This document shows positions 22,184 through 52,618 of a stretch of DNA of 64,000 nucleotides, one piece after another. Position 1 is the first letter of the stretch. Every line of letters starts with the position of its first letter. The notes under the pieces are model-generated. The model worked only from the letters and a program-made list of their open reading frames with translations. It was not told where the DNA came from and searched no databases. The position numbers were made by a program, and so were the translations under genes. The stretch lies in contig CAWJBB010000079.1 in assembly GCA_963840855.1 (NCBI GenBank), forward strand, positions 128,001-192,000, read 5' to 3'. This stretch comes from an uncultured delta proteobacterium (GTDB lineage Bacteria; Desulfobacterota; Binatia; UBA9968).

Positions 22184-22223
22184 ATGACTTTTTTTCAGGC
22201 GCCCGCCGGTGATACGACCTTAT

Positions 22224-24431: not shown

Positions 24432-24436
24432 GGCTA

Positions 24437-28674: not shown

Positions 28675-28866
28675 AAAACGGTTTCTCCTCCCGAAAATTT
28701 TGTGCGTGATTGCCGTATACTATTCCCGGTTAGTCTTCGTCAACTGATCGAGCGCGGGTTATCGAACAGAACTATAAAGCAGCATCAGCCCAAAGCTGAT
28801 CAACCTGAGCTTGGTCCTGCGTCGTATTCCCGCCAAGCGCTCGGCTGGAACCGCTGACGTCGGTCT

Positions 28867-31440: not shown

Positions 31441-31652
31441 CCTCTTTTCCATAGTTCGTAGCCTGGATGGAGTGAAACGTAATCCAGGAAGTCTTTCCCT
31501 ACAGTTCTGGATCTCATACGCAAGACTCACCAATCGAACCGTAGGAGGTCGCGACCGTCCCCTACCTGCAAGCACGACCTTCGCAAGTCGATCGAGCGCA
31601 CTCTTCGACGATGCTCAGGGCGATCGGCATATCAGTCTTCTTCACCAGCCTG

Positions 31653-33413: not shown

Positions 33414-33622
33414 AATAATCCTCCGTAAGGTTTGGCTTTTCTTACTTGAAAAAAATTCAACGTTTGGCCAGCCATGTACCACACAACAGCGAGTTTGAAA
33501 AGTCCGGCGCTGAGCACAGTCTAGAGTCTCGGGTCTGGAGACTCGGTTTGACTCGAAAAGAAATTCGAAACGCGGAAGCGTGTGTTCGTTCGAACACGAG
33601 CACGAGAGATGAGCACGCGTCG

Positions 33623-33994
33623 TTAGTTTTTTGTTTCTCTAACAGTGAACGGAAAACTCTGCTCGACCACGTGCCCGTCCACAGATAAAACGCGGAATTT
33701 CACGGTATATCTCCCTGCCTGAAGTTGCTTGACGCCGATGGCAAGCTGCTTTGGATCCTCATTGGACACCAACGCGTTGTCGAGGTCTACACGCTTGCCA
33801 CCGGAATCAAGAACCGCGATGGACGAATAGCGTGGCTCCAAGCGCTCGTTAAACCAGATCTGAATTTTCGCCGGCGAAGCGAACAGCGTAGCGCGGCCCG
33901 GCGGCACGGATTTCACGAGATAAGCGTGTGCGGAAGCGAGCGCCGGAAACAAAAGAAACAACAAGAGCAAAACCTCAGCACGTCGCGCTTTCAT
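33623..33994 (-). CDS. copC: Periplasmic copper-binding protein CopC
   Basis: ASA|HAYLVKS.P (His1), WFNE.LE, GRYTVKFRVLSVDGH. Confidence 0.93.
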   Translation of the reverse strand: MKARRAEVLLLLFLLFPALASAHAYLVKSVPPGRATLFASPAKIQIWFNERLEPRYSSIAVLDSGGKRVDLDNALVSNEDPKQLAIGVKQLQAGRYTVKFRVLSVDGHVVEQSFPFTVRETKN

Positions 33995-34038
33995 TTTTTG
34001 ACGAAGCAACACGGCGAATTAAACAAAAGATCGGAGAT

Positions 34039-34077
34039 AAAGGGATAGAAGATGTCGCACCTCTATCCCTTTTTTTT
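34039..34077. terminator. Intrinsic terminator-like hairpin between amidohydrolase 3 and copC
   Basis: AAAGGGATAGA...TCTATCCCTTTTTTTT; long T tract on +, short on -. Confidence 0.6.
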
Positions 34078-34097
34078 GTCCACTGCCTGCGGACCAC

Positions 34098-35859
34098 TCA
34101 GAAATTATCCGCCTGGTAAACGATCTTCCCGCCAACCATGGTGAGGAGAGGTTTTATCTTTCTGATCTCCCGTTCAGGCACAGTGAAGTAATCGCTACTG
34201 AGAACCAGGAGATCGGCATACTTGCCGCGCTCCAGGGAGCCCTAGAACGTTCTCCCTGAAGACATACTCGGCCGCCCAGCTCGTGGCCGTTTTCAGCGCC
34301 AGCACGCGGTCGACGCGTTCCTTGGCGGCATAGACCTTGCCTTCGACTTCCCGATTGACCATGACGTCGATGTAGTGAAACACGGTGCCGACCTTGAAGA
34401 TGTCGCGATCATCGATCTCCATGACGGTTTTAACCCCTGCGTCGAGCAATGATTTCACTGGGGCAATCCACGTGAGGTATTGCTCGCCGTAATCACGCAA
34501 GACTTCCGGCGAGTCCTCAACGTATTTCGGCGCGCAGCTCATCATAATATTGAGCTTTTGCAGCCGCGGGATTTGGTCAGGGCGGGGATTCAAGGCGCAG
34601 TGATCGAGCGCATGACCCTTGGCTTTGATCTGCTCGGCGGTCAGCCCGGCCCTGGCGCTCCCCTTTTCGATGGCGTCGAGCATGATATCCGCCGCCTTAT
34701 CGCCCGCTGTATGCGTGCCGGCAATCCGAAGGCCGGCGGCGACCGCATTCTCAATAAATTCCGGAAGACCCGCGTTGAAAACCTCTCGATCTTTAATTTC
34801 CTTGGGTACATTGGTGATGGTCGTCAGAAGTCCGGGGTAGGACTGGTCGGTGCCGCGCATGCTCGCTCCGACGAACCACACGTAGTCGGTTCCATAACCG
34901 CTTACGCCATACATCTCCGGAATCAATTGAATCGGCGTGCCCAGACTCGGAGTATAGGCAAATCTTATCCCTATCTCGCCCTTTCTATCGAGGAGCTGGT
35001 AGCCGGCCAACGCGCGCATCGAGCGCATGGAGCTGGACCAGGTAGTAACACCGTAGCTCGCCCATCGGAGATTTTCCTCTTTGTAAAGTTGCGCTAACTG
35101 CTCCAAAGTCGGGATCAGGAAGTCAGACCCTATAATGCGATTCAGCGTGTTGGAAGAAAAGCCGTCTTCGCGCATGAGATCAGGTTCCATGGGGCCGGCC
35201 CAGATGTTTTTCACGATGTCCATGGCTTTGCTGTTCAGAATCGAAGTGGTTCTTACTTTAAGGTAAACGGGGTTGTTCGGCGCCAGCTCATCCAACTCTT
35301 TTCGATTGACGATAACTCCCCTGCGCGAAGCGACGATGCCATCCATGGGTTTACCGTCCTGTCCGATGCCCTCGCGCGGCAAGTCCAAGGCGATCCAGTC
35401 GCCGGGTTTTTTCTTGGCCGCCTCTACCTTGACGACGTCGAGAACCTTTTTCTTGATGCTCGCCCAAGTCTCTCCCGACTGAGCCCGGACGCGTGTTCGC
35501 ACCGTATTTTGCTCCTGCGCGTCCAGGGCGTAATCAAACAAGTGCGAATGCGTGTCGATAATTCCCGGCACAACCGTGCGGCCCTTCAGATCGAGGATTT
35601 TCGTCTGCGGTCCTTTTAACCCAAGGATCTGTTGATCGCCGCCGGCGGCGATGATTTTTCCGTCTCGAATCGCCACCGCCTGCGCCATGGTTCCGGGGTT
35701 TGACGAGGGTGTCTTGTCGTCCATGGTTGCGACCTTGCCGTTGTGCAGGATGGTGTCGGGATAATTTACTAGCTCTGGTGGAACACTTTGAGCCAGTACC
35801 GGGCGGGTGACGAGAGCCAAACTCAAGAGAAGAAATAAAACCCTAATAGAGCGTTTCAT
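34098..35859 (-). CDS. Exported amidohydrolase-3 paralog 3; +1 frameshift near 34240
   Basis: VLA|Q, IDTHSH, THTAGD, DHC, SCAPKY; removing one G restores GSLERGKYADLLV...GGKIVYQADNF stop at 34098. Confidence 0.9.
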
Positions 35860-35977: not shown

Positions 35978-36409
35978 TTACTTCTTACCCGTTTCAACCG
36001 GAAACTTTCGTTTAACCCATTCCTTAAAAGTATCCGCCATGACCGAAATATTGCGATACTCATGGTCGTCGCGCAGTGGTAGATACGCTTCCTGAACCAG
36101 CTCGTCTTGCTCGCAGTCGCAGTAGAGCACCACCCGGCCCGCCTTGGGAATCTCCCTTAAACGTTTTTCAAGCTCGTTCATGGGGAGCGAACGGGCGCCC
36201 GGGATGCGTGCCTGCTTAAAGTCTTTGGCGGGCCGGAGGTCGAAAAGAATGAGCGGTTCGCGCGCAGCGAGATAATACTTGACCCGCTCCATCGTCACTA
36301 TCGAGACAGGTTCCTCCGAGCCGTGGCCGGCCACAGCGATCCTCGTGGGGAACCCCACGACCATGGCGAAAAGAAAGACGAAAACTCGATGGCCAGAGCA
36401 CAGGCGCAT
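35978..36409 (-). CDS. Exported rhodanese-fold protein 3 (YCDC)
   Basis: Leader ending AVA|GH, FDLRP, RIPGARS, VVLYCDCEQ. Confidence 0.88.
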   Translation of the reverse strand: MRLCSGHRVFVFLFAMVVGFPTRIAVAGHGSEEPVSIVTMERVKYYLAAREPLILFDLRPAKDFKQARIPGARSLPMNELEKRLREIPKAGRVVLYCDCEQDELVQEAYLPLRDDHEYRNISVMADTFKEWVKRKFPVETGKK

Positions 36410-36461
36410 CTTAGGATTGTCTCCGTAAATAGCAGAGCGACAATATCCGCCAGCGGCTTTA

Positions 36462-38303
36462 TTACTCGATAACCCCCGGCGCTTCCTTGCCGCCAAACTC
36501 CGCCACCTGGGGACCGCGGGTCCTCCCTCTCAACGCGGAGTTTTCGTGGATAATCTTGCCACTTACCATAGTGAGCACTGGAGCGACAGTTCCGATCTCG
36601 CCTTCGGGCACCGTCAGGTAATCGCGGTTGAGGACCAGCAAGTCAGCGAACTTTCCCGGCTCCAGCGAACCCAAAACATTTTCCTTCAACACATACTCTG
36701 AAGCCCACACGGTTCCCATCTTTAGCGCGAGCACGCGGTCGATCTTCTCCCGCGCCGCATAAACCTTACCGTTCACCTCACGCGTCACTAAGAGTTCCAG
36801 GTAGTGGAATGGACCCTTTGTCGGCGTGAAATGAATATCTGTTTCCAGTACTGTCTTCACTCCGGCTTCGATAAGGCTCTTGGCGGGAGCGACCCAGTTG
36901 AGATATTTCTCGCCATAATCGCGCAGCACTTCCGGGCTGGCGTTTTCGATATACTTGGGACTGCAGCTCACGAGAATACCGAGCTTCTTTAATCTCGGCA
37001 TTTGATCCGGTCTCGGATTCATCGTGCAGTGATCGACAGAATGACGCCGGGCCTGGATTTGCTCAGGCGACATGCCGGCTTTCTTGCTCCCCTCTTCGAT
37101 GACATCCATCACCTGGTCCAAGGTGGCGTCCCCCGCGACATGCGTGTTGCTAAAACGCAGCCCTCGGGCGACGATTTCCTCTAAGACCTTGCGCCTGTAG
37201 TCCCCGCCATCCAAACGAGTCATCTCCCTCGATTTGATTTCCGCCGGCGCGTCAGCGCTGGATTTTAGCTGTGGGTACGAGCCATCGGCGCTGACCAGGC
37301 TGATGCCGTTGGGCCAGAGATACTCAGATCCCTGCCCCTCTACCAGTTCCATGTAGCCGCGCACCATGGCCGGTCCTTGTGAAGTTCCGGTAATGAGACT
37401 TCCCAAACCATAGGCGAAGCGCACGACCATTTCGCCCTTTTGATCGAGAAGCCGATAGGCGCGAATCGTATTCAACGCTGAGGTAGAGGAAGACCAGGTG
37501 GTCACGCCATAGGCCGCCAATTCCTCCTGTTCTTTCTTGTAGAGATCGGCCAACAGAGGAAGCTTGCCATCGAGGATGATGTCGGTTTGGAGCGAGCGCC
37601 GGATGCTGGCGCTCCATACGATGCCATCCTCGCTGATCTCTTCATCCAATGCGCCATAGTGGCGCTTGAATGCCTCAAGGGCGCGGCTGCTGAACAATCC
37701 ACGATTGCCGGCCTGGATGAAAATCGCATGATCAGGCGAGATTTTATCCAGCTCTTCTTTGTTGAACATCTTGAGGTCCGTCATCGCCACTTTGATGTCC
37801 ACTTGTTTGCCATCGCGCATGACGCGATTCGGTAGCCTCACCCATATCCACTCGCCCGGTTGGGCTTTCTTTACCTCCGCCTGAACGGTTTCCAGCGTCG
37901 CCTTTCTCAGCTCTGCCCACTCCCGCCCCTTGATTGCCGGTTTTCTCAGCTCAGGGAGGTTCCTCCCCCAGTGGTCCATGGTGTATTCCATCGCGTGGTA
38001 GTGGGTGTCGATGATTCCAGGGACCACGGTCCTACCGCGCAAATCGATGATCTCGGTCTTGGGGCCTTTCAGCGCGAGAATTCTATTGTTGGCACCGAGA
38101 GCCAAAATCCTGCCATCTCGGATGGCGAGCGCCTGGACGATCGTTCCGGGATTGGTGGATGTTGTCTTGTCGTCCACCGTGACGATCTTACCATTGTGCA
38201 GAATCGCTTCCGGATAGCGGATCAATTCCGGCGGCAGGTTTTGCGCGAATGCAGGACTCAAGGAAAGTAGACCAACTAAAAAGGAAAAAAATAGCCTTCT
38301 CAT
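36462..38303 (-). CDS. Exported amidohydrolase-3 paralog 4
   Basis: AFA|Q, IDTHYH, THVAGD, DHC, SCSPKY, GSLEPGKFAD. Confidence 0.93.
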   Translation of the reverse strand: MRRLFFSFLVGLLSLSPAFAQNLPPELIRYPEAILHNGKIVTVDDKTTSTNPGTIVQALAIRDGRILALGANNRILALKGPKTEIIDLRGRTVVPGIIDTHYHAMEYTMDHWGRNLPELRKPAIKGREWAELRKATLETVQAEVKKAQPGEWIWVRLPNRVMRDGKQVDIKVAMTDLKMFNKEELDKISPDHAIFIQAGNRGLFSSRALEAFKRHYGALDEEISEDGIVWSASIRRSLQTDIILDGKLPLLADLYKKEQEELAAYGVTTWSSSTSALNTIRAYRLLDQKGEMVVRFAYGLGSLITGTSQGPAMVRGYMELVEGQGSEYLWPNGISLVSADGSYPQLKSSADAPAEIKSREMTRLDGGDYRRKVLEEIVARGLRFSNTHVAGDATLDQVMDVIEEGSKKAGMSPEQIQARRHSVDHCTMNPRPDQMPRLKKLGILVSCSPKYIENASPEVLRDYGEKYLNWVAPAKSLIEAGVKTVLETDIHFTPTKGPFHYLELLVTREVNGKVYAAREKIDRVLALKMGTVWASEYVLKENVLGSLEPGKFADLLVLNRDYLTVPEGEIGTVAPVLTMVSGKIIHENSALRGRTRGPQVAEFGGKEAPGVIE

Positions 38304-38325: not shown

Positions 38326-38763
38326 CTAGCGGGTTACTTTTTTGGCAATCGTCTCCATCGGATAACCGCGGTTTACCCAGCCCTGGAATCCATCCGCCAT
38401 TATGGCAGCATTGCGGTAACCATAGTCTTTGAGTAACAAGTAAGCGTCGTCGATAATCTGATTTTGCGGGCAGTCGCAATAGAGCACCACGCGACCCGAT
38501 CGCGGAATTTCCGTGTAGCGCTTAGCCAGTTCCTTCAGCGGAACGGAACGCGCACCGGGGAGCCGCGCTTTCTGAAAGTCAGCGCCGGCACGAAGATCGA
38601 CGATGATGATCTTCTCGCGCGCATCGAGAAAAGCCTTCACCTGCTCAACCGTGACCGTGACCACATCTTCTTCACTGCCATGCCCGGCCCATGCCACCGC
38701 GGGCGAAACCATCACGAGTGCGAGTATAAGAGCGGCGAGCTTTCTATCATTTGTCACATGCAT
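38326..38763 (-). CDS. Exported rhodanese-fold protein 4 (YCDC)
   Basis: Signal peptide AWA|GH, VDLR, RLPGARS, VVLYCDCPQ, GFQGW. Confidence 0.9.
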   Translation of the reverse strand: MHVTNDRKLAALILALVMVSPAVAWAGHGSEEDVVTVTVEQVKAFLDAREKIIIVDLRAGADFQKARLPGARSVPLKELAKRYTEIPRSGRVVLYCDCPQNQIIDDAYLLLKDYGYRNAAIMADGFQGWVNRGYPMETIAKKVTR

Positions 38764-38777
38764 AGTTCGTGTCTGCG

Positions 38778-40575
38778 CTATTTGCTCGGCGTTAGTGCAA
38801 GACCCACCGCCGGTAATTTCTCCGCCTTGGCGAATTGCGGATTGGTGTACACCAGCTTACCCGCGACCGCAGTCAGCATTACGTTGATCTTCGAGAGATC
38901 TTCGTCCGGAGTATTCAGGTAATCGCGGTCTATAATGACGAAATCCGCCCACTTCCCACGCTCGAGGGAGCCCAGAACCTTTTCACGCAGAACGTATTCG
39001 GCGGCCCAACGGGTGAACATCTTTAGAGCCGTAGACTTATCGACGGCTTGCTTTGCTCCCCAGGTTCTTCCCTCGCTGTCCTTGCGGGTAACCGCATACT
39101 TGATGTGAGCAAAGGCGCCGCCTTCCTTTCTGTGCACCCTGCGATCGTCCATTTCCATAACGACTTTCCCGCCGGCTTGTAGAATGTTCTGGATGGGCGC
39201 GTTCATCTCATGCGCGTATTTTTCGCCGTAGTCCCGGGATATGTCGGCAGCATCCTCTATATATCGGGGCGCGCAACTCCAGATGATGTCGAGTTTTTTT
39301 CCCCGTTCGATTTGGTCGGGCCGCGGGCTCATGCCGCAGTGGTCAATGTTATGCTTCTTGGCCCGGATCTCATCGGCGCTTATTCCCGCCTCCGCGCTCG
39401 CCTTCTCGATCAGGTCGAGATATTTATCGACCGCGCCATCGCCATAGACATGGGTTCCTGAGATGCGCTGCCCTGCTTGAACCGCGGCGCGCATGATTTT
39501 GTATTGCGCATCCGCCTCGCATATCTCCCGCGACTTGATTTCGTCACGCGCATTAACCGTGGTGCAGTGCCGCGGGTAACTGCTGTCGAGAGCGGACAGC
39601 GATACGCCAATGGTCCACAAGTAGTTCGTGCCGTGACCGACATTGTTTCCCAGCCGCTTGTAGAACTCTGCCGGCATGGGCAAAACCTGCGGCGCCCATT
39701 CGATGCGAGTACGCAAAGCGGATCGGCATCTCACCGGCACGGTCCAGCACGGCAAAGCCGTCAAAAACCTTGGCCGTTGGTAGCGACGATGACCAAGTGG
39801 TAACGCCAAGCGCAGACCAGGCCTGTAACTCCTTCTTATAAATGGCTGCGAGTGTTTACGGCTTTTGCACGAGAATCTCGCCGATTAACGTGCGCATGGC
39901 GCCGGAGCCGATCGGCCCCCGTGGAGTCCCTTTCGCGTCCGAGGGTATCTCTTCTGGAAGCTCGCCGAAGTAGTCAGTGAACATCTTAAAGATGAGACTG
40001 TTCGCCCTTCTATCCGTGCCGCGGAGCTGGACGACAATCGGATTCTTAGGCGCAAGCTCGTCCATTTCTTTCAGCATCATCTTTTTGCCGAACTCCTCAG
40101 CGACGCTAGACGGCTGGAGTTGCACGTGGACGATCTTGCCCGCGGGAGTTTTCGCAAGCATCTCCTTCAAGCGAGCGATCGCTTCGTCGACGGATTTAAC
40201 CCGAACCTCGGTCTGCCGGTACTGCGCCAACTCCGGCTCGAGCTTTTCAAGATCGTTCGCCCAATTTGCCGGTGCGTAATCGAACAGGTGGGAATGTGTG
40301 TCGATAAACCCAGGTAGTACTGATTTACCCTTCAGGTCCAGTTGCAGGGTTTTAGGGCCGGCTAGCGCGAGGATTTCGCTGTTGCTGCCGACGGCCATGA
40401 TTTTGCCGTCGCGCACGGCAAGGGCCTGCGACACGGAAAAACGCTCGTCCACCGTAACTATTTTCCCATTGTGATACACAGCATCCGCGAAAATCACCAT
40501 CCCTTTACCGGTTTGCGCCGCGGCTTGACTCGTGAGAAGACAGTACGACATTAAGAAGCTAATCAGCCATCTCAT
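38778..40575 (-). CDS. Exported amidohydrolase-3 paralog 5; in-frame TAA at 39856 and frameshift near 39680 (error or pseudogene)
   Basis: AAA|Q, IDTHSH; reading continues in frame through the stop (GVTTWSS, GEMPIRFAY), then THVYGD, DHC, SCAPRY in the shifted frame. Confidence 0.85.
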
Positions 40576-40670
40576 GGGTTTTTCCTCCTTGTGACTGTAT
40601 TTAAGTCAACGCAGGCAATGTGTCCACCCCTGCGCCGTTAAAAAATCACCCAACTTCGCCCAGGCGCGAG

Positions 40671-41787
40671 TCACTGCTCCGTAGCCCGCGGCGCTGGCAA
40701 TCCCCACACTTCAACGGCGATGCGCTCGGCAATCTTGTTTCCTTTTAGCAAGCAGGCGACATTGCAAAACGAAACGCTGGCGCTCTTTGTTAGCTGATGA
40801 GTTAAATTTCCCTCAACCAGGAACGAACCTCTACCGGGTTCCGTCGATTCGACGATTTGCTGGGCCTCGCCGAGAAGCTAAAAACTCCAGCCAGAGAAGC
40901 GCTGCATGAGGATTCTTGGCGCCCGCATAGATCGCCTGGGGATCGTGCAAGGTGATCGGGAGAATCTCCGGTACTACCATCTTGATGGGCAGATTCGGAT
41001 CCTTCTTCAACATGCGGCTCATCGGATGGATATACATCCCGCAGTTCATGGAGAGCTTGCCCTCGGCCAGCAAACCGAGGTTGCGGGTATTGCCCCGGCC
41101 AAACACTGCCTGGTTATCTTTCAATCCCCGGGCAAAGTCGAAAAGTCTTTCCTCCCCCCAGCGCGGGATGAGCCATGTCAGCATATTGGGATTGGCATCG
41201 ACGCTGAACCTGCCTTTCCATTGCGAGTCGAGGCAGCTCGCCCAACCCTTGGGGGCTTTGTCCGCTGCTATCAGGCTTGAGTTGTAAGTGATGATGCCGG
41301 TGTTGTTCGACGGCCACACAATCATGCCCGTGTCATCGATCATCTCGATGGGAATTTTGATCTGACCATCCCGCGCCATCGCCTTGAGGTCATACTTTTT
41401 GACAAGCCCCCGCTCAGGATATTCGTTTGGGAAAGAGCCGCTAAATCCTAAAACATCGACGACCGCCTCGCCTGCGACAAGCTCATCGAGCGCTTGTTTG
41501 GGATTTGGCCTCGAGCCCATTTTGCTGGCGCCCCACCCGGGCTGCACAAAGGGATACCTTTTGCCGAACGCCTTGAGAAGCTCCGGTATCGTTGCTTTGT
41601 CATACTCGGGCCGCAGCGCGGGATGCAAAAGCAGTTTCCCTTCCTTCTTCGCTCCCTCGATCATCTGCGCGCTTGACACATAAATCGTTGCCGGCCTTGG
41701 CTGGGCCGTGGATTGGCTCGCGGAAAACATTGCCGCGAGAGCAAACGGGATAGAAAAACAAACATGGAAATATTGCGCTAGTTTCAT
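40671..41787 (-). CDS. AfuA-like ABC substrate-binding protein; frameshift near 40873
   Basis: Signal peptide, GAKKEGKL, FGKRYPFV, NPHAALLWLEF; shifted frame continues GEAQQIV...VWGLP to a stop at 40671; homologous to 10121..11245. Confidence 0.8.
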
Positions 41788-42086
41788 TTTTGTAACCTTT
41801 GTGCTCTTTGTGGCTGATCTTGCCTGCCTTCTATGTGGTTCAAAGTTTTCGCGGCGCGCGCAAATTCTTTGGTTACCTTGATCCTAAATTGGGGAATTCA
41901 CAAGACAATACGGTATCACCACGTAAGGCACGAAGGACTCGAAGGGTCCGAATATTTATATTATTAAACTTCGTGAACTTCTGCCTTCGTGGTGAGTCCC
42001 TTCTTCTTGTGCCCTTTAGGGTTAAATCGCTTATTCCGTTTGGTTGCGGTCGCCGCGCTAGGTTTTTCGTGGCGCGTGTCCCTAAC

Positions 42087-42557
42087 CTACCGCCGGCCCG
42101 CCTCGATGGGAAATTTACGCTTTTCCCAGCCGTAAAACCCTTCCAGCATGAAAGCGATATTTCTGTACCGGTTGTCCTCAAAAAGCTGAAACACGGAGTC
42201 CGGAATCTCGTCTTGCGGCGTTGCCGCGTATACAATGACCCTTCCCGACTTGGGAATCTCGCCCAACCGCTTGTCCAACTCCGCCATCGGAATCGAGCGG
42301 GAGCCGGGAAGTCTTTTGTCTTGGAACTCTTTTGCCGGCCGGATATCGATGAGCAAAAATTTTTCGCCGGCGTCGAGCAGCAGCTTGAGGCGGTCGGCCG
42401 CGATGGTAGTAACGTCCCTGCCCTCATGCCCGGCTTCCGCCAGCGCCGGCGCTAAAGCAAGAACCAAGACCGTTAGAAAAATAATTACATGGCCCGCCCT
42501 GACGATTCTTATCGCCGATTGCTTTTCCCTCTTGATGGCTCGTTTACGGATTGCCAT
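42087..42557 (-). CDS. Exported rhodanese-fold protein 5 (cysteine-free, YAAT)
   Basis: AEA|GH, IDIRP..EF..KRLPGSRSIP, VIVYAATP, EGFYGW. Confidence 0.87.
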   Translation of the reverse strand: MAIRKRAIKREKQSAIRIVRAGHVIIFLTVLVLALAPALAEAGHEGRDVTTIAADRLKLLLDAGEKFLLIDIRPAKEFQDKRLPGSRSIPMAELDKRLGEIPKSGRVIVYAATPQDEIPDSVFQLFEDNRYRNIAFMLEGFYGWEKRKFPIEAGRR

Positions 42558-42587
42558 CGCTGCTGCGGCTCAGTTATCTTCTCTCGC

Positions 42588-44423
42588 CTACTTACTTGCC
42601 GCCCTTTCATAAACCGTCTTGCCGCCCACGATGGTCAGATCGACCAGCAACTCGTCGATCTTGTCCTCCGCGACGGACATGTAATCGCCGTTGAATACCA
42701 CCAGGTCGGCATATTTGCCGCGCTCGATGGAACCCAGCATCTTCTCCTCGCCGATGAATTTCGCCGCATTATACGTCGTCATCAACAAAGCCTGTTTCCT
42801 ATCGATGGCTTGATTCTTACCCCACACCCGCCCTTCGCGGGCGCTGCGCGTGCTTTTATCCGTCCGGGTCACGAACCGCTCGATCCTCCAGACCGGCGGC
42901 TCATCCGGCTTACCGCCCTCGATGTGGACATTCACCCCGGCATTGATCAAGTCCTTGACCGGCTGCATGGAATGCATCTGCTCGCCGTACTGCGCGAAGA
43001 GCATCTCTTCGCCCCGCACGACGCGCTGGCTGAAAATCTCGGAATTCAACCCGAATGCCAATCCGTCGCCGAGCTGCTTGGACAGGGCGAGCGATTTCGC
43101 ATCCCAGATCAAGTTGTGATCGAGCGCGTTGCGCCCGAGCATGGTGTGCACCTTGATCTCAGGTTGCTTCTCGGCGTCCGCCAGACTTTCCAGCACGATT
43201 GTCGTCGCGCCGCTGCCCATATTGTGGTTACCGCTGATATTCCAGCCGTGTTTGCGCAGGAGTTGTAGAGTCGTCCATTCGGTATCGCGTTTCTCTGCGT
43301 CGTTAAGATCGCGCCACTGCTTGCCGGTCCATTCCGGCCCCGTCCATTTGTTGCGTCCGTAGAGCCCGCCCTTGACCTCGGCATGAGCGGCCCGCTTGGG
43401 CTCGTTGGTCATGATGCCGCCATCATCCGACGCGCCGTCCACCGGTCCCACCGCGGCGCCAACGATTCTTACCATGTCATCGCCGAGTCTAAAGTTCACC
43501 AGGTTGGGAGTACGCCGCAGAATCTGGTCGGCCATGGGATTTTGCCGCGCGAAATCTAAGGTAGGGCGGATACGCATCTTGAGGCGGTCGTGATGGAACA
43601 TCTGGCTAACGATGGTCACCGTGTAGCCGCTCGCATGACCGGTGATCGTCGTCACCCCGACCCTGAGAAATTGGTCGATGATTTCCGCCTGCTCCTTGAA
43701 GATCTCTTCGGTGAGCTCCGGCCAGTCGCGCAGGTTCCAGCCGATAAATCCCAGGGCCTGACTGAAGAGCTGGCCGGTGGGATTGCCGTTCGCATCCTTG
43801 ACGACTTGAAAGTGCTCTTTGCGCATTCCCGCGGCGAACGCCTTCTCCAACATGAGCGTGTTGACGACTCCCTCTGAGCTGGAAAGCGACAGCATCAGAG
43901 GATTATTGGGCGCGAGCTTGTCCAGGTCCCTGGCCGTCAGTTTCGACAGATCGCTGACGAATTCGTCCGCCATGCGGACGTATACGCTCGAGCCGGGCTT
44001 TGCCTGCGAAACCAGATTGCCGACCTGAGTCAACATCTCGGGGACGTTCTTGCCTCGAACCCTCCTGCCAACTTTTCCATTGACCATGGTGTCCTTATAG
44101 AGATCGCCGCCCGCAAAGGCATTGTCGCCGTCGCTGTCGATGAATCCTGGGACGACGCTTCTCCCTCTGAGATCGACGCGGCGCGTGTCCGGCCCCGCGA
44201 GCCTCATCATTTCAGCGCTGCTCCCCACCGCGAGAATCTTTCCGTCCCGCACCGCCACCGCCTCGGCGACGGTGAAATTCTTGTCAGCGGTGAGCACTTT
44301 GCCGTTGTGCAAAATCAAATCGGCGTAGCGGATCAGCTCCGGCGGCAGCGTCTGAGTGACGCCCTGGCCTGCGAGCATCAACAAGAAAAACCAGCCCGGA
44401 TAAGCGGATAAAATTGTTCTCAT
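42588..44423 (-). CDS. Exported amidohydrolase-3 paralog 6, divergent (DSDGD in place of DTHxH; no Cys)
   Basis: LILHNGKVLT, AVAVRDGKI, VVPGFIDSDGD, GSIERGKYADLVV; AAGGAGG RBS. Confidence 0.88.
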   Translation of the reverse strand: MRTILSAYPGWFFLLMLAGQGVTQTLPPELIRYADLILHNGKVLTADKNFTVAEAVAVRDGKILAVGSSAEMMRLAGPDTRRVDLRGRSVVPGFIDSDGDNAFAGGDLYKDTMVNGKVGRRVRGKNVPEMLTQVGNLVSQAKPGSSVYVRMADEFVSDLSKLTARDLDKLAPNNPLMLSLSSSEGVVNTLMLEKAFAAGMRKEHFQVVKDANGNPTGQLFSQALGFIGWNLRDWPELTEEIFKEQAEIIDQFLRVGVTTITGHASGYTVTIVSQMFHHDRLKMRIRPTLDFARQNPMADQILRRTPNLVNFRLGDDMVRIVGAAVGPVDGASDDGGIMTNEPKRAAHAEVKGGLYGRNKWTGPEWTGKQWRDLNDAEKRDTEWTTLQLLRKHGWNISGNHNMGSGATTIVLESLADAEKQPEIKVHTMLGRNALDHNLIWDAKSLALSKQLGDGLAFGLNSEIFSQRVVRGEEMLFAQYGEQMHSMQPVKDLINAGVNVHIEGGKPDEPPVWRIERFVTRTDKSTRSAREGRVWGKNQAIDRKQALLMTTYNAAKFIGEEKMLGSIERGKYADLVVFNGDYMSVAEDKIDELLVDLTIVGGKTVYERAASK

Positions 44424-44439
44424 GAGCGACCTCCTTAAA

Positions 44440-44459
44440 AATACGACTAAAGTCGTATT
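44440..44459. promoter_or_regulatory. Perfect 8-4-8 palindrome in the divergent promoter region (candidate operator)
   Basis: AATACGAC-TAAA-GTCGTATT; degenerate copy near 46312-46330. Confidence 0.5.
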
Positions 44460-44544
44460 GCTTTTCGTCGAGATTTAGGCGAGAAATACGCCCAATTCAC
44501 AAAGATTACCAGGGAAAACAATAAACGCTTTAAGGGGGTCAAGG

Positions 44545-46098
44545 ATGGAAATACGACGTGGATTTTTCCTGACGATTGGAGTGGCGTTCTTCGCGTCGCT
44601 CTTAATGGTGACGCCTGCATCGGCGGCCAACGACGAGATTGAAGCGCAGATCAAAGCTTTGGAGCAGGAGGTCTCGAAGATCGAGCCGCTCAAAGACCAG
44701 ATCGAGCGGCTCAGGTCGCAGCAGATAGAATTGAAGAAAGACGCAACCGCGGCGGCGGCTGCTTTGCCGGCGTTTGAATACCGCCCGGGCCGCGGCTTGA
44801 CGATTACCGCCGCGGACAAGAGCTGGTCGTTTAATACGACTTACCGGCTCAACATGTACTTGTACAATATTCTCCAGGGGAAGCCGAATTTCTCCGCAGC
44901 GATGGCGATCAAATAAATACTGGCGCCACGCAAGGGGAGATTTTCCCCCGCCGCAACCGTTTGTACTTTTCGTATTGCTGGTCGGACTGCTTTCTCCAGG
45001 CGGATGTCACCTTCGACGGTGAGACCGCCCCACGCGCAAGTTTCCTGGCGCGACAGCGAACTCTGGTTTCGCTTCGACCAGTTCAACGAGTACCTGCCCT
45101 ATTTTTCCGTAGGTCTGCGCCGGGGCGCCGGTAGAACCCACATAGGGAGAAGCTCCGACAACGACGGGAAGATGGAACATAGCATAATCGTCGACGGCTT
45201 TGCCTGGGGCGGCGACGGCTCCCATGCCGGTGCGGGTATAGGTTGGGAGGGGATAGATATTGGCCCGAGTAAATTCGAACTCTACGTCAACTAGGCGACG
45301 AGCAGGCAGGGCACGCACCAGGAATTCGTCAATGACGACCGCAAGGGGCTTATGACGTTTCTTGGGGTCAGGCCCTTTGCCAACATGAAGAACAAGTGGA
45401 TTGAAGGGCTTGATATTGGCTTCGGCTACCAGGCCCAGTCGCAAAATTCGCCGTTTAACATGCAAGGCGCCGATGGCGTTAGCGAGATCCGGGTCCGCAA
45501 CGCCGAGCGGCGTGGCCGCTTCGATTTGTTTAGGCCGGCGGTTGAGCTATGTCCACCCGGCGAAGACAACTGTGATCAGAACTTCGGTGGCGGCTGGAGT
45601 TATGTGATAATCCCCGGCCTCCAGTAGAAGATCGGCCCCTACATGTTCCGGGCCGTTTGGGTGAAAACCCAGTACAGGGGCAAGGATGATACCTTGCGAG
45701 GCATTGAGGGAAGGGGCTGGACCGTCGACCATCAGGTCTTCCTGTGGAGCCCGAAGGGTTTCTTCACCGGCAGTCAGACCACGCCGAACTCGATCATGTT
45801 CTCCTTTGGCTTTGAGCGCGGCGATATGGAATGCGGCGAGGGCTGCGATGCCTCGCCGGGCGCGGGTTCATTCCACTCCAATACCGTGTTAAACCGGGAA
45901 GCAGCACTGTGGTACTGGGTCCGGCCGAGCTTTGGCATAGGCACGTGGTTTCATTACTGGACAACGGCCAATACGCCCGTGCGGACTCAGGTAGGAACTG
46001 GCTGCAAGAACAATATTGCTGATGCTGAAGCCGGGAGTGGCGCGGCCAGGAAATGCAGTTTTACCAGCGCGAAATTCGGTATACGCTACCGCTGGTAA
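44545..46098 (+). pseudogene. Outer-membrane beta-barrel (OprO/OprP-like architecture) copy 1; two frameshifts and two in-frame TAG stops
   Basis: Signal peptide ASA|A, N-terminal coiled coil, amphipathic strands, C-terminal GIRYRW; TAG at 45292 and 45625 where copy 2 has TTG and TAC. Confidence 0.7.
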
Positions 46099-48465: not shown

Positions 48466-49140
48466 TTAGGTGCTCTTGTCATCGCCCTTCGCCGAATCTC
48501 TCCGCTCTCTGCGCAGCTGCTCTCTTACCGCATCGGCTTCCCGTTCAACTTCCATGCCGACGAGTTCAACGCTGGCGATAAGGTCGGTCCAGTTGATTTC
48601 CTTGCCTTGAGTAGTGGCAAGATCTTTTTCAATCCGCGAACGGATGATTCTCCCGGGGTCCCAGTACGCGCCATACAAAGAATAGTATTGCATGTAGTCG
48701 ATCCAGCCTCCCAGTCCGCTAAGTCCGGTCTGGATCTCTTTCAGACCCCTTTGGCGATCGCCATCTTGGGATAATGCCAGGCCGAGATAAAGCGGCGCCA
48801 GGGAGTCTTCAGGGTAACGCGTGCGCGCTTGCTCCAGGGCCTTGCGCGCCGCGGGGTAGTCTCCGCCGGCGTAATAAGCGCGCCCCACATAGGTCCACAC
48901 GCCTTCTTTCATGAGGCCATGTTGAACCTTGGCGTTGGGGTCGATCTCCGCGGCACGCTCGAAGTGAGCCAGAGCGCGCTTGGCATCGCCGCGCATCAGG
49001 GCATATCGACCTGGCTGCAGCTCGCCGCTCGCTCGAATAGCGGTACAGCCGGAGAGGAACATGGCTAGAGGCAAAATGAAACCCGCAACATGAAAAATAT
49101 TGACTTTGGCGATTCGCGATTTGAAATCTGCGATCTTCAT
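48466..49140 (-). CDS. TPR lipoprotein, type A copy 1
   Basis: Lipobox LSG|C, TPR pattern GRAYY.GDYPAARKALEQA...P.D.LAPLYLG. Confidence 0.82.
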   Translation of the reverse strand: MKIADFKSRIAKVNIFHVAGFILPLAMFLSGCTAIRASGELQPGRYALMRGDAKRALAHFERAAEIDPNAKVQHGLMKEGVWTYVGRAYYAGGDYPAARKALEQARTRYPEDSLAPLYLGLALSQDGDRQRGLKEIQTGLSGLGGWIDYMQYYSLYGAYWDPGRIIRSRIEKDLATTQGKEINWTDLIASVELVGMEVEREADAVREQLRRERRDSAKGDDKST

Positions 49141-49228
49141 GGTCCGTTTTTCCTCCTTGTGATCTGAAGCCTATAACATAAACAGTTTCATGGCAAATTC
49201 TATTCCCGTTTCACATCTTTCCCAAGAT

Positions 49229-49257
49229 TTGACACTCCCCGAGCCATTGGTTATCGT
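49229..49257 (+). promoter_or_regulatory. Putative sigma70 promoter (second copy 51871-51899)
   Basis: TTGACA-N17-TATCGT upstream of the type B lipoprotein gene. Confidence 0.55.
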
Positions 49258-49350
49258 TCTTTATCTCAATCAACCATACGTTGCGGACGATATCCGTGGA
49301 TTGCTCCACGGCTAATTTCAATAAAACCTATACGGATTGGCGGAAAGGAT

Positions 49351-49980
49351 ATGACAAATTTCCACGATAGCCGCTTGCCGGTTGTAAGTCTCTTACTATT
49401 TACCCTGGGCTGGCAGTTTGTATCCGCTTGCTCCAAGCCCGATTGGTTCGTCGGCCGCAGCGGCCAATACAACGAGGGAAAGTACGAGATCATCCGCCGG
49501 GTGGGCGGCAACATGGACAAGGCCATCAATAACTTCGAAGCCATCGCAAGCGAAGACCCTGCATACCGGGACACTCTGACCCTTTTGGGTAGGGCTTATT
49601 ATAAGAAGGGCCGCTACCCGGATGCTCATTTGATCTTGCAAAGAGCCGTGAGGCTCAGAAATGATGATGAGATTGCCTGGTTGATATTCGGCATAACCCA
49701 GCTGCGCCTGGGGGACAATGACCGGGGGCTGGAGAGCGTGCGCGGCGGCCTCACCCTCTTTGCCAGAGCCACCGCCGATAACAAATATCGCGGCTGGGAT
49801 GTATGGGATCCCGCTGGCAAGGTCAAAATCGCCGGGCGCCGAGCGGTCTTCATCGCCCTCAAGGGACTCGAGGAGAAAGATGATTTGATCAGGAGCGTGG
49901 AAAATGTTCTCTCGGCTGTCGAGGACGAGGAATTTCATCAAATCTTTGAAAAGACCCAGCAGCAAAGGCAGTTCGAATAG
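49351..49980 (+). CDS. TPR lipoprotein, type B copy 1
   Basis: Lipobox VSA|C, LLGRAYYKKGRY..A...LQRA, AWLIFG. Confidence 0.82.
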   Translation: MTNFHDSRLPVVSLLLFTLGWQFVSACSKPDWFVGRSGQYNEGKYEIIRRVGGNMDKAINNFEAIASEDPAYRDTLTLLGRAYYKKGRYPDAHLILQRAVRLRNDDEIAWLIFGITQLRLGDNDRGLESVRGGLTLFARATADNKYRGWDVWDPAGKVKIAGRRAVFIALKGLEEKDDLIRSVENVLSAVEDEEFHQIFEKTQQQRQFE

Positions 49981-50108
49981 CGCCGGTGAGCTGTAACAAT
50001 TGATTCGCGTCTACCTTCGACAAGCTCAGGGTGAACGGTCAAGGCACGCGACTTAAGCAACCCTTGGCGTGAATGGATGGTCGATAAAAACTAGAATGCG
50101 CCCGGGGC

Positions 50109-50783
50109 TTAGTTGCGCCCGTCATCGCCCCTCGCCGAATCTCTCCGGTCTCTGAGCACCTCTTTTCTTACCGCAGCGGCTTCCCGTTCAACTTCCATGC
50201 CGACGATTTCAACGCTGGCGAGAAGGTCGCGCCAGTTGATTTCCTTGCCTTGAGTAACGGCAAGATCTTTTTCAATCCGCGAACGGATGATCCTCCCGGG
50301 GTCCCAATACGCGCCATACAAAGTATAGTATTGCATGTAGTCGAGCGAGCTTCCCAGTCCGCTAAGTCCGGTCTGGATCTCCTTCAGACCCCTTTGGCGA
50401 TCGCCATCTTGGGATAATGCCATGCCGAGATAGAGCGGCGCGAAGTAGTCTTCAGGGTAACGCGTGCGCGCTTGCTCCAGGGCCTTGCGCGCCGCGGGGT
50501 AGTCTCCGCCGGCGTAATAAGCGCGCCCCACATAGGTCCATACCCCCTCTTTCATGAGGCCATGTAGAACCCTGGCGTTGGGGTCGATCTGGGCGGCACG
50601 CTCGAAGTGAGCCAGAGCGCGCTTGTCATCGCCGGCCATCAGGGCAAATCGTCCTGGCTGCAGATCGCCACTCGTTCGAATAGCGGTACAGCCGGAGAAG
50701 AACATGGCTAGAGGCAAAAGGTAAAATGCGATATTAAAGACTTTAACGTTGGCAAGCCGCGATTTGAGATTTAAGAACTTCAT
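50109..50783 (-). CDS. TPR lipoprotein, type A copy 2
   Basis: FSG|C lipobox; paralog of 48466..49140; GGAGG RBS before MKFLN. Confidence 0.82.
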   Translation of the reverse strand: MKFLNLKSRLANVKVFNIAFYLLPLAMFFSGCTAIRTSGDLQPGRFALMAGDDKRALAHFERAAQIDPNARVLHGLMKEGVWTYVGRAYYAGGDYPAARKALEQARTRYPEDYFAPLYLGMALSQDGDRQRGLKEIQTGLSGLGSSLDYMQYYTLYGAYWDPGRIIRSRIEKDLAVTQGKEINWRDLLASVEIVGMEVEREAAAVRKEVLRDRRDSARGDDGRN

Positions 50784-51109
50784 CTTCCGTTTTCCTCCTT
50801 TGATCAAAAGCCTATAACATAAACAGTTTCATGGCAAATTTCACACGGCCTGACGCTCAGGATAAACTCCGCCGAAGAATCTCGTCTTCGGAACACCTTG
50901 AATATGCGAGATGCTTCGCAGAGTTTATCCTGAGCTTTGCCGAAGGGCTCATGACTCAGCGCGCTTTCGCGGTTTGCGACACACAGTCTCAGAGCGAGAA
51001 GAAGCAAAACAAGCTAGGGGCGGGTTTCAAACCCGCCCCTGCAAGATGATAGCCGTGTCCAGAGGTGTCGTGAATGGATGGTCGTTAAAAACTAGAATGC
51101 GCCCGGGGC

Positions 51110-51784
51110 TTAGGTGCCATTGTCATCGCTCCTCGCCGAATCTCTCCGTATTCTGAGCACCTCCGCTTTTACCGCAGCGGCTTCCCGTTCAACTTCCATG
51201 CCGACGATTTCAACGCTGGCGAGAAGGTCGCGCCAGTCGATTTCCTTGCCTTGAGTAACGGCAAGATCTTTTTCAATCCGCGAACGGATGATCCTCCCGG
51301 GGTCCCAATACGCGCCATACAAAGTATAGTATTGCATGTAGTCGAGCGAGCTTCCCAGTCCGCTAAGTCCGGTCTGGATCTCCTTCAGACCCCTTTGGCG
51401 ATCGCCATCTTGGGATAATGCCATGCCGAGATAGAGCGGCGCGAAGTAGTCGTCAGGGTAACGCGTGCGCGCTTGCTCCAGGGCCTTGCGCGCCGCGGGG
51501 TAGTCTCCGCCGGCGTAATAAGCGCGCCCCACATAGGTCCATACCCCCTCTTTCATGAGGCCATGTAGAACCCTGGCGTTGGGGTCGATCTGGGCGGCAC
51601 GCTCGAAGTGAACCAGAGCGCGCTTGTCATTGCCGGCCATCAGGGCAAATCGTCCTGGCTGCAGCTCGCCACTCGTTCGAATAGCGGTACAGCCGGAGAA
51701 AAACATGGCTAGAGGCAAAAGGTAAAATGCGATATTAAAGACTTTAACGTTGGCAAGCCGCGATTTGAGATTTAAGAACTTCAT
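51110..51784 (-). CDS. TPR lipoprotein, type A copy 3
   Basis: Near-identical to 50109..50783 except the C-terminus and scattered substitutions. Confidence 0.82.
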   Translation of the reverse strand: MKFLNLKSRLANVKVFNIAFYLLPLAMFFSGCTAIRTSGELQPGRFALMAGNDKRALVHFERAAQIDPNARVLHGLMKEGVWTYVGRAYYAGGDYPAARKALEQARTRYPDDYFAPLYLGMALSQDGDRQRGLKEIQTGLSGLGSSLDYMQYYTLYGAYWDPGRIIRSRIEKDLAVTQGKEIDWRDLLASVEIVGMEVEREAAAVKAEVLRIRRDSARSDDNGT

Positions 51785-51988
51785 CTTCCGTTTTCCTCCT
51801 TTGATCAAAACCCTATAACATAAACAGTTTCATGGCAAATTCTATTCCCGTTTCACATCTTTCCCAAGATTTGACACTCCCCGAGCCATTGGTTATCGTT
51901 CTTTATCTCAATCAACCATACGTTCCGGACGATATCCGTGGATTGCTCCACGGCTTTAGTAAAACCTATACGGATTGGCGGAAAGGAT

Positions 51989-52618
51989 ATGACAAATTTA
52001 CACGATAGCCGCTTGCCGGTTGTAAGTCTCTTACTATTTATCCTGGGCTGGCAGTTTGTATCCGCTTGCTCCAGGCCCGCTTTGTTCGTCGGCCGCAGCG
52101 GCAAATATAAGGAGGGAAAGTACGAAATCATCCGCCGGGCGGGCGGCAACATGGACAAGGCCATCAATAACTTCGAAGCCATCGCAAGCGAAGACCCTAA
52201 ATACCGGGACACACTGACCCTTTTGGGGAGGGCCTATTATAAGAAGGGCCGCTATAAGGATGCCTATTTGATCTTGCAAAGAGCGGTGGCGATCAAAAAT
52301 GACGATGAGATTGCCTGGTTGATATTCGGCATAACCCAGCTGCGCCTGGGAGACAATGACCGGGGGCTGGAGAGCGTGCGCGGCGGCCTTACCCTCTTTG
52401 CCAAAGCCAGCGCCGATAGCAAATATCGAGGATATGATGTATGGGATCCCGGTGGCAAGGTCAAAATCGCCGGGCGCCGAGCGGTTTTCATCGCCCTCAA
52501 GGGACTCGAGGAGAAAGATAATTTGATCAGGAGCGTGGAAAGTGTTCTCTCGGCTGTCGAGGACGAGGAATTTCATCAACTCTTTGAAAAGAGGCTGGAC
52601 AACAGGCAGTGGGAATAG
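51989..52618 (+). CDS. TPR lipoprotein, type B copy 2
   Basis: Paralog of 49351..49980. Confidence 0.82.
   Translation: MTNLHDSRLPVVSLLLFILGWQFVSACSRPALFVGRSGKYKEGKYEIIRRAGGNMDKAINNFEAIASEDPKYRDTLTLLGRAYYKKGRYKDAYLILQRAVAIKNDDEIAWLIFGITQLRLGDNDRGLESVRGGLTLFAKASADSKYRGYDVWDPGGKVKIAGRRAVFIALKGLEEKDNLIRSVESVLSAVEDEEFHQLFEKRLDNRQWE

Follow-up and report, generated by a model that had tools for sequence, protein, structure and literature searches.

A probably cognate amidohydrolase-rhodanese pair with a putatively remodelled metal site and a cysteine-less rhodanese loop

Introduction

A 64,000-nucleotide stretch of DNA (hereafter the window) from an uncultured delta proteobacterium whose closest named relatives are Syntrophobacter-like (GenBank assembly GCA_963840855.1, contig CAWJBB010000079.1, positions 128,001 to 192,000 of the forward strand) carries a minus-strand cluster of amidohydrolase (AH) and rhodanese (Rhd) genes arranged largely as two-gene cassettes. 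The cluster is headed by AH6, followed by Rhd5, and neither of the encoded proteins contains a single cysteine or the active-site motifs of its paralogs. The question raised by this locus is whether two enzymes have decayed together here or whether a working pair of a different kind has been kept. The original prediction had described a coordinated degeneration, in which covariation ties the CxC loop of the rhodanese to the Cys/His site of the amidohydrolase, and had proposed that AH6 could be a pseudoenzyme or scaffold, or could bind a hard metal (Ca, Mg, or a lanthanide) through its Asp-rich motif. The analyses described below make it likely that AH6 and Rhd5 are a conserved, functional, and cognate pair, not two decaying genes, and that the changes in the two proteins occurred at different times.

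Results

Sequence and predicted fold of AH6

AH6 (42588-44423, minus strand) is encoded by an intact open reading frame (ORF) of 611 amino acids, with a signal-like N-terminal segment, 12 His residues, and no Cys. It belongs to the Amidohydro_3 family (PF07969) with a score of 114.4 bits against a cut-off of 29.7, residues 83-605 covering profile positions 3-472 of 472. For comparison of motifs, AH6 was aligned with its paralogs in the window and, by profile-profile alignment, with 15 canonical relatives. Full-length identity to the canonical amidohydrolases of the window is 26-29%, and AH6 carries an insert of ~40 residues (~340-380) that these copies lack. At the end of strand 1, PGFIDSDGDNAF of AH6 stands opposite PGIIDTHSHLFD of the canonical copies (PG[IL]IDTH[SY]H in the paralogs). 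The AH6 motif FIDSDGDNAF (44115-44144, minus strand; residues 94-103) thereby brings D98 and D100 to the metal-ligand positions of the canonical HxH, which AH6 lacks, and because D-S-D-G-D lies ungapped in register with D-T-H-S-H, HxH appears to have become DxD. HMMER aligns "idsdgdnaf" of AH6 with VNAHGHSAM of 4dyk; hhalign sets D98 against the first His but inserts a gap after it, which makes the position of D100 less certain.

At strands 5 and 6, GNHNMGS (43212-43232, minus strand; residues 398-404) replaces the canonical GTHxAGD, and LDHN (43113-43124, minus strand; residues 434-437) replaces [IV]DHC. The strand-5 and strand-6 His are retained in AH6 as H400 and H436, aligning with H406 and H443, which are invariant in the 15 canonical relatives. 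Canonical amidohydrolases have two invariant Cys (C444 and C465) next to His ligands; in AH6, N437 takes the place of the invariant Cys in the DHC motif, and AFGLNSE lies opposite SCAPKY, with nothing resembling SC[AS]P. At E502-G503-G504 (42912-42920, minus strand) the canonical strand-8 Asp of E-x-D has changed to Gly: G504 aligns with D506, which all 15 canonical sequences share, and E502 is kept. As read from these alignments, the alpha-metal site of AH6 appears to be wholly replaced and the His of the beta-site to be kept. The earlier description of AH6 as lacking Cys, DTHxH, DHC, SCxP, and THxxGD is borne out by both sets of alignments; the strand-8 change had not been part of it. An Asp motif for a hard metal, as had been suggested, would fit the putative HxH-to-DxD change.

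The structural model of AH6 (predicted local distance difference test (pLDDT) 89.7, predicted template modelling score 0.88) gave its best Foldseek matches with 3icj (E = 2e-26) and 3igh (E = 4e-25), at template modelling scores of 0.51-0.67 and 17% identity. These are YtcJ-like proteins of Pyrococcus (Amidohydro_3, PF07969; COG1574), solved and uncharacterised, which share the fold and domain order of AH6, and 3icj can be aligned with the canonical AH paralogs of the window over HAIGDKA and IEH. AH6 departs from the canonical YtcJ-like site at HxH, where it has DxD, and at the strand-8 Asp, which is replaced by Gly. A sequence search of the PDB with AH6 and its clade profile found no solved relative of the barrel core, matches being limited to the peripheral beta-sandwich and a C-terminal segment. 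In NCBIfam, no family reached its cut-off for AH6, Rhd5, AH2, Rhd2, or two conserved neighbours from the Acidobacteriota loci described below.

Conservation of the AH6-type clade

A search of 5.8 billion proteins returned 909 that match AH6 at E <= 1e-10. Motifs were counted in AH6 together with the best 120 of these 909 homologs, which are 65-98% identical and whose named sources include Vicinamibacterales, other Acidobacteria, Burkholderiales, delta-proteobacterial and other organisms. GNHNMGS was present in all 121 sequences, S-D-[GA]-D-N in 119, and the exact FIDSDGDNAF in 97; 80 of the 121 were free of Cys. In a residue-conservation alignment of 39 clade members, two of them only 41-47% identical, the invariant or near-invariant positions were S97, D98, D100, N101, H263, D290, H400, N401, D435, H436, N437, G458-E462, and E502-G504. 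These residues lie at the C-terminal ends of predicted strands (94-96, 257-264, 284-289, 432-437, 455-459, and 498-501), and the C-terminal strand ends of the barrel are the site of amidohydrolase active sites, which argues that the pocket is still under selection.

By its S-D-[GA]-D-N, G-x-H-N-M-G-S, and L-D-H-N motifs and its position in clade B of the trees described below, AH6 falls within the definition of a DxD-type YtcJ-like clade and is a member of an old, widespread clade of secreted YtcJ-like amidohydrolase-fold proteins. The first position of the Asp triad is Ala in relatives from genomes G121 and G203. A second AH6-like gene is found in the same genome as the window (contig C63, L001 7228-9126, plus strand), with 41% identity to AH6; it reads VNSGSGAFA and LDRN, having lost the acidic residues, and lies between unrelated metabolic genes without a rhodanese.

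Rhd5 and its rhodanese family

Rhd5 (42087-42557, minus strand) follows AH6 after a gap of 30 bases and is an intact ORF of 156 amino acids with an N-terminal signal or anchor sequence and no Cys. Residues 54-146 match Rhodanese (PF00581) with 40.5 bits against a cut-off of 22.2. VYAATPQ of Rhd5 stands opposite LYC[DS]CP of the four paralogs in the window, and in the active-site loop, Y110-A-A-T113 (42219-42230, minus strand; codons TAC GCG GCA ACG), both Cys of YCxC have changed to Ala, in agreement with the earlier observation of YAAT and a Cys-free protein. Since GCG and GCA are each two changes away from a Cys codon, the loop is not the product of a single-base error. The catalytic Cys of an active rhodanese or sulfurtransferase is absent from Rhd5.

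Members of this rhodanese family were found at E <= 1e-30 in 21 of 123 genomes of an order-level sample (including the unpublished G273), and a scan of metagenomes that started from 26 family members gave at least 76 loci. Among 106 distinct near-full-length domains, 90 carry CxC and 16 lack both Cys; the Cys-less motifs recur in 3 other genomes and 12 metagenome contigs, and all 112 sampled paralogs outside the Cys-less group keep CxC in the census of 128 domains described below. His44 of Rhd5 (42426-42428, minus strand) directly follows the hydrophobic signal segment (AEA, then GH). All 26 aligned family members have a His at this position, the only residue outside the fold core that does not vary in the family; Rhd1-4 and the loci L005-L123 have it at the same place. 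A His occurs in the expected N-terminal stretch of 101 of 101 N-terminally complete rhodaneses, 61 of them as A-G-H. If the signal segment were cleaved after Ala, as we infer, mature rhodaneses of the family would begin with X-His, and N termini of this kind are known as Cu(II) sites.

In NCBIfam, both Rhd5 (38.8 bits) and Rhd2 (45.1 bits) scored highest with rhodanese_LYCAU (NF041203), whose cut-off is 115 bits, so neither is a member; unlike the (seleno)proteins of that family, Rhd5 has neither Cys nor selenocysteine (Sec). A secreted rhodanese relative in the same genome (contig C55, L124 215-688, plus strand) has, in frame, a TGA where the first Cys of CxC would stand and reads LYUACP under TGA = U, its nearest NCBIfam model being the rhodanese-related (seleno)protein family. 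Similar matches with a single TGA were seen in several related genomes. A further subfamily, with the loop YC[DE]CK[PT]Y, has no amidohydrolase upstream, and many genomes of the family have one copy of it each (loci L020, L021, L032, L036-L046, L095, L102, L103, L109, L113, and L116-L122).

Predicted complex of AH6 and Rhd5

The complex of AH6 (residues 27-611) and Rhd5 (residues 43-156) was predicted in three runs alongside 3 controls. The complex score was 0.64 (median of 0.78, 0.64, and 0.46), and the best of the 3 controls reached 0.00. Of 157 solved complexes, 116 attain the score mark used, as do 2 of 215 mismatched pairs; these benchmark counts apply only roughly because author-built alignments were used. 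At least 57% of contacts were shared among the runs, and the pLDDT of the partner was at least 81. On AH6 the confident contacts include residues 101 and 104 of the DxD loop as well as 505-507, immediately past the strand-8 position; on Rhd5 they include 103-105 and 130-133, flanking its active-site loop, so that the model seats Rhd5 on the barrel mouth of AH6. To our knowledge no amidohydrolase-rhodanese complex has been solved, and a score owed to memorised structures therefore seems unlikely. From these models, AH6 and Rhd5 probably form a complex.

Covariation census

For the census, 128 distinct rhodanese domains were sorted by loop type and by the gene directly upstream, absence of an amidohydrolase meaning none within 500 bases; upstream amidohydrolases were assigned to the canonical clade A or the AH6-like clade B. 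Among rhodaneses with CxC, 64 follow a clade-A amidohydrolase, 3 follow a clade-B amidohydrolase, 29 have none upstream, and 16 lie at a contig end. For Cys-less rhodaneses the corresponding counts are 0, 12, 0, and 4, the last being 4 of the 12 Cys-less metagenome contigs, which start at the rhodanese and leave its amidohydrolase out of view. Every Cys-less rhodanese with a readable upstream region thus lies behind an AH6-type gene (12 of 12; 4 genomes and 8 metagenome contigs). This constant adjacency and the complex score above controls uphold the cognate pairing of AH6 and Rhd5 that had been proposed.

The association did not hold in the other direction. In G121 (L019) the amidohydrolase at the head of the cluster reads IIASDGDNAF, GVHNMGS, and LDHN, has its sole Cys in the signal peptide, and overlaps by 4 bases a rhodanese with an intact loop (YCDCRPG). 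Its relative at L058, also HxH-less and Cys-free in the mature part, is followed by a rhodanese with YCACQPG. At L123 an amidohydrolase with exact FIDSDGDNAF, GIHNMGS, and LDHN, again Cys-free in its mature part, precedes a rhodanese with YCDCRPADE. The expected adjacency therefore stood for Cys-less rhodaneses, always found behind AH6-type genes, and failed for these three HxH-less, mature-Cys-free amidohydrolases with CxC neighbours. A rhodanese of the family was absent from nine DSDGDNAF loci of Acidobacteriota and Actinomycetota, of which 7 extend 0.7 kb or more downstream, and no Pfam Rhodanese was found among 35 ORFs neighbouring the DSDGDNAF genes of these phyla. At least 20 of the 29 CxC rhodaneses without an upstream amidohydrolase belong to one CDCK[PT]Y subfamily, and the 29 indicate that CxC has a use independent of any amidohydrolase.

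Trees and order of events

A first amidohydrolase tree took its outgroup from other Amidohydro_3 proteins; in it the canonical amidohydrolases of the cassettes formed clade A (14 rows, support 98) and the AH6-like proteins clade B (20 rows, support 98). A second tree was rooted on clade A; here three G203 proteins lie at the base of clade B, at least one of them still with HxH (DTHLHS), and the HxH-less proteins form a clade within it (21 rows, support 97). One HxH-less group contains the C63 paralog, L123, and L019 with L058 (93), and the other consists of the DSDGDN proteins (16 rows, 100). The latter splits into 6 rows with a Cys-less rhodanese (98) and, as their sister, 10 Acidobacteriota and Actinomycetota rows without a rhodanese (100). 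The loss of HxH is therefore old, lies deep in the clade, and is common to lineages without a rhodanese neighbour.

The 16 Cys-less rows of the rhodanese tree (106 rows) form one clade (100), for which one change suffices. The loss of Cys from the rhodanese is a single event, long after the change in the amidohydrolase site, and the raw association between Cys-less rhodaneses and clade-B amidohydrolases rests on this one evolutionary event. The word coordinated does not survive this comparison, the loss of HxH lying at the base of the 21-row clade and the loss of Cys being separate, in one 16-row clade.

The rhodanese tree was unrooted; on the amidohydrolase side, AH6 is an outgroup to the canonical copies. 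For the cassettes AH1/Rhd1, AH2/Rhd2, AH4/Rhd3, AH5/Rhd4, and AH6/Rhd5, the same genomes group together in both trees. Forcing the Cys-less clade together with the three CxC partners of clade-B amidohydrolases cost 14.8 log-likelihood units, with a marginal p of 0.030 in the approximately unbiased (AU) test. Clade-B partner rhodaneses are thus probably not one clade, and the partner trees are incongruent at that depth, which suggests that clade-B amidohydrolases gained rhodanese partners more than once. Of the mirror topology anticipated for the two trees, the shallow part was recovered, and the deep part probably was not (AU p 0.030).

Selection on the pair

Among four orthologs the ratio of nonsynonymous to synonymous substitution rates (dN/dS) was 0.064-0.092 for AH6. 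For Rhd5 it was 0.07-0.20 over the whole ORF and 0.074-0.098 over the mature domain, and the CxC paralogs gave 0.10-0.13 where dS could be computed; all of these values are rough, with dS at ~0.6 to 1.8, near or beyond saturation. Both genes are under purifying selection, and Rhd5 is not drifting. The term degeneration accordingly does not describe them, the motifs of AH6 being the conserved signature of a large clade.

Metal-related neighbourhoods

Genes for CopC and/or a CopD-cytochrome c fusion recur near the clusters, in the window, G121, G261, G038, L123, L097, L057, and L055. At L123 the fusion gene lies directly upstream of the amidohydrolase, and at L055 AH6, a Cys-less rhodanese, and CopC occur in succession. 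The AhpC/TSA-like part of the fusion was present in 4 of 6 copies (window, G121, G261, and L123) and was not matched in G038 or L097. L018, L022, and L033 are also among the loci at which AH-rhodanese clusters have CopC or the CopD-cytochrome c fusion nearby.

A different setting surrounds the DSDGDNAF genes of Acidobacteriota and Actinomycetota, five loci of which have long flanks (L008, L009, L010, L014, and L015). All five encode a secreted protein of ~320 amino acids with an N-terminal heavy-metal-binding domain (50-69% mutual identity), and four of the five a protein of ~410 amino acids with a CLPCH motif. A TonB-receptor-like outer-membrane protein was matched by Pfam at two of the five, with a possible third at L009 (a 1,087-amino acid ORF without a family). 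No match was found in the window when these Acidobacteriota neighbours (the heavy-metal-binding-domain protein, the CLPCH protein, and others) were used as tblastn queries. The two neighbourhoods are unrelated, and both point toward periplasmic metal handling, as no more than a lead.

Layout of the cluster

Both ORFs are intact and AH6 heads the minus-strand cluster, as had been reported; this head-of-operon position of the AH6-type pair is kept in the window, L007, and G121. Between Rhd5 and the next cassette lies an SBP_bac_6 solute-binding protein gene (40831-41787, minus strand), and such genes were seen repeatedly in related clusters. The AH5-Rhd4 cassette follows (38326-40575, minus strand), AH5 being split into 39856-40575 and 38778-39809 with one TAA inside, and Rhd4 (38326-38763) having the loop YCDC. 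In the AH4-Rhd3 cassette (35978-38303, minus strand), AH4 (36462-38303) carries DTHYH, VDHC, and SCSP, and Rhd3 (35978-36496) YCDC. Next are AH3 and CopC (33623-35859, minus strand): AH3 (34195-35859) has a frameshifted C terminus (34113-34247) and no rhodanese, and CopC (33623-34012, minus strand; PF04234, 80.3 bits) comes after it. The AH2-Rhd2 cassette (30979-33482, minus strand) consists of AH2 (31653-33482) and Rhd2 (30979-31575; YCDC) and is followed by a gene for a CopD-cytochrome c-AhpC/TSA-like fusion protein (28867-30924, minus strand). In the last cassette, AH1-Rhd1 (26478-28719, minus strand), AH1 occupies 26948-28420, its N-terminal 76 profile positions (28420-28719, minus strand) being in a different frame from the rest, and Rhd1 (26478-26951) has YCSC. 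Genes for TPR, VWA, MoxR, and DUF58 proteins come after AH1-Rhd1 at the far end of the cluster.

The claim that all other pairs keep both sets of motifs is right as to the motifs; as to the pairs, 3 of the 5 canonical AH genes (AH1, AH3, and AH5) are interrupted in the assembly, and AH3 has no rhodanese. A reading of the interrupted genes as pseudogenes was rejected, orthologs in another metagenome-assembled genome (MAG; L007 and L033) being split as well, so that indel errors are as likely an explanation as pseudogenes. A promoter and terminator scan of 40500-45600 gave 1 promoter-like site, on the wrong strand, against 2.4 expected.

Elsewhere in the window, a tandem direct repeat of ~6.49 kb was found at 12054-25040 (sampled 300-base blocks 98-100% identical, spacing 6493-6494), which duplicates genes for an NMT1-like binding protein, VWA, DUF58, and MoxR and may be a true duplication or an artefact of assembly. 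Upstream of the cluster, at 48466-52618, lie five small genes for paralogous TPR proteins on alternating strands; TPR genes are also found upstream of the AH6 ortholog in L007 and L055.

Discussion

The reading favoured here, and considered likely, is that AH6 and Rhd5 are a working cognate pair whose two unusual sites arose at different times. The two proteins would form a periplasmic heterodimer, in which AH6 may hold one harder cation or ligand through D96, D98, and D100 together with H400 and H436, in place of the canonical binuclear centre. If the complex model is correct, Rhd5 would dock over the mouth of the AH6 barrel as a non-catalytic docking or gating subunit, without sulfur transfer. 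In one Syntrophobacteraceae-like lineage, AH6 would have come to head an operon of canonical AH-rhodanese cassettes with CopC and the CopD-cytochrome c fusion, and in that lineage its partner rhodanese would have lost both Cys of YCxC once, keeping its fold, its N-terminal His, and normal constraint.

Several points weigh against this reading. The distribution of Cys-less rhodaneses (12 of 12 behind clade-B and 0 of 64 behind canonical amidohydrolases) is what the earlier hypothesis predicts, and the predicted interface at the active-site mouth of AH6 would also be expected if rhodanese loop and amidohydrolase site were functionally coupled. The AH trees were made by a quick method, the AU p of 0.030 is marginal, and the group it concerns was defined with knowledge of an earlier tree; the dN/dS values are affected by saturation. 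The source genome is a MAG of 7.1 Mb (completeness 94%, contamination 8%). Finally, the strand-8 Asp is the general base in amidohydrolase-superfamily enzymes, and with its loss AH6 may be without any hydrolytic activity.

The first two of these points belong to an alternative in which the CxC of the rhodanese supports the His/Cys metal site of the amidohydrolase it is paired with, for example by delivery of a thiophilic metal or sulfur; beside an amidohydrolase lacking such a site CxC would have become dispensable and been lost, as a delayed consequence of the change in that site, and CxC rhodaneses beside other DxD amidohydrolases would simply not yet have lost it. Besides the census counts and the predicted contacts of Rhd5 with the DxD loop (101 and 104) and 505-507, this account can draw on the invariant C444 and C465 beside the His ligands of canonical amidohydrolases, on the recurrence of CopC and CopD genes in the clusters, and on the conservation of AH1/Rhd1, AH2/Rhd2, AH4/Rhd3, and AH5/Rhd4 as units between genomes. 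The loss was, however, a single event and hence without replication, and at least two lineages of Cys-free, HxH-less amidohydrolases (L019 with L058, and L123) keep CxC partners. The 29 CxC rhodaneses of the same family without an amidohydrolase upstream and the absence of relaxed constraint on Rhd5 also argue against it, and we hold this alternative to be rather improbable.

AH6 might instead be a pseudoenzyme with a binding or scaffold role and Rhd5 a second inactive module, the two together regulating or assembling the canonical cassettes downstream. All three alpha-site ligands (the two His of HxH and the Asp of strand 8) are lost, the C63 paralog (VNSGSGAFA, LDRN) lacks even the acidic residues, a loss that the clade thus tolerates, and the operon-head position is kept in the window, L007, and G121. 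Inactive rhodanese domains are known as binding platforms (PMC7274447). Set against this, the pocket residues are the most conserved part of AH6, which would be unusual for a ligand-free site, and most clade members (Acidobacteriota and Actinomycetota) have no AH-rhodanese cassettes to regulate. HxH-less amidohydrolases can also be active, E. coli NagA being an example (PMC6016474). NagA keeps its strand-8 Asp and AH6 does not, so a non-hydrolytic binding role of AH6 stays a serious rival; the pseudoenzyme account as a whole is judged unlikely. That errors of sequencing or assembly, or a contaminating contig in the MAG, account for the odd motifs and missing Cys is scarcely credible: the 8% contamination of the MAG, the several frame-interrupted AH genes, and the 6.5 kb near-identical tandem repeat would allow for it, but both ORFs are intact, the Ala codons are two positions off Cys codons, and the same motifs in 3 other genomes and 12 metagenome contigs refute it in practice.

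Both halves of the proposed pair have partial parallels. CRMP/dihydropyrimidinase-like proteins, which are animal cytosolic proteins of another subfamily, have the amidohydrolase fold, have lost the metal-binding His, and show no hydrolase activity. The N-terminal domains of MAP-kinase phosphatases are catalytically inactive rhodanese homology domains. In TBC1D23 a rhodanese homology domain without a working catalytic Cys provides a protein-binding surface (PMC7274447). Rhd5 resembles such domains in its missing Cys and its predicted docking on AH6; the inactive cases known so far are eukaryotic multidomain proteins, whereas Rhd5 is a small, secreted, single-domain bacterial protein. For the amidohydrolase half, E. 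coli NagA (N-acetylglucosamine-6-phosphate deacetylase) has QXN for HXH and a mononuclear site and sets a precedent for an amidohydrolase fold working without HxH through the other metal site alone (PMC6016474). NagA keeps its strand-8 Asp, and the D272A and D267A mutants are reported as dead (PMC6016474). NagA differs from AH6 in being a cytoplasmic protein of another subfamily that retains the Asp that is Gly in AH6, and the two gave a weak match in the C-terminal composite domain only. The D96-S-D98-G-D100 segment of AH6 is acidic at positions 1, 3, and 5 of the Dx[DN]xDG calcium loop (PMC3123361); with Asn101 instead of Gly at position 6, AH6 does not have the motif itself, and the likeness is a resemblance only. 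In the literature searched, no description of an amidohydrolase-rhodanese pair or of the DxD clade was found. The fold and both domain families are already known; the remodelled AH site, its conservation, and the inactive rhodanese partner are new.

A broader and more speculative possibility, to which we give little credence for now, is that the AH-rhodanese cassettes are undescribed periplasmic two-subunit metalloproteins in which a rhodanese caps the mouth of the amidohydrolase, AH6 and Rhd5 being a natural metal-swapped version. If so, the rhodanese would have X-His at its N terminus along with a CxC loop, Sec taking the first position in a relative, and CopC and the CopD-cytochrome c fusion would supply copper or other thiophilic cargo. 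In the metal-swapped version, His/Cys would have given way to Asp and CxC to AxA, with a hard cation and no thiol chemistry, and the DxD protein would have been separately recruited to neighbourhoods with heavy-metal-binding-domain proteins and TonB receptors in Acidobacteriota.

An apparently perfect covariation (12 of 12 against 0 of 64) was reduced by the sampling of relatives to one event and three counter-examples. The operon, with up to six AH-rhodanese cassettes, CopC, and the CopD-cytochrome c fusion, is unstudied, and the predicted heterodimer offers a testable model for it. Proteins of the AH6-type clade have so far been annotated merely as "amidohydrolase" or "YtcJ", and their putative metal site is conserved as tightly as an active site. 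The clade would represent a natural experiment in which soft His ligands were exchanged for hard Asp ligands on one scaffold, and it is a candidate for a new chemistry or metal-binding role.

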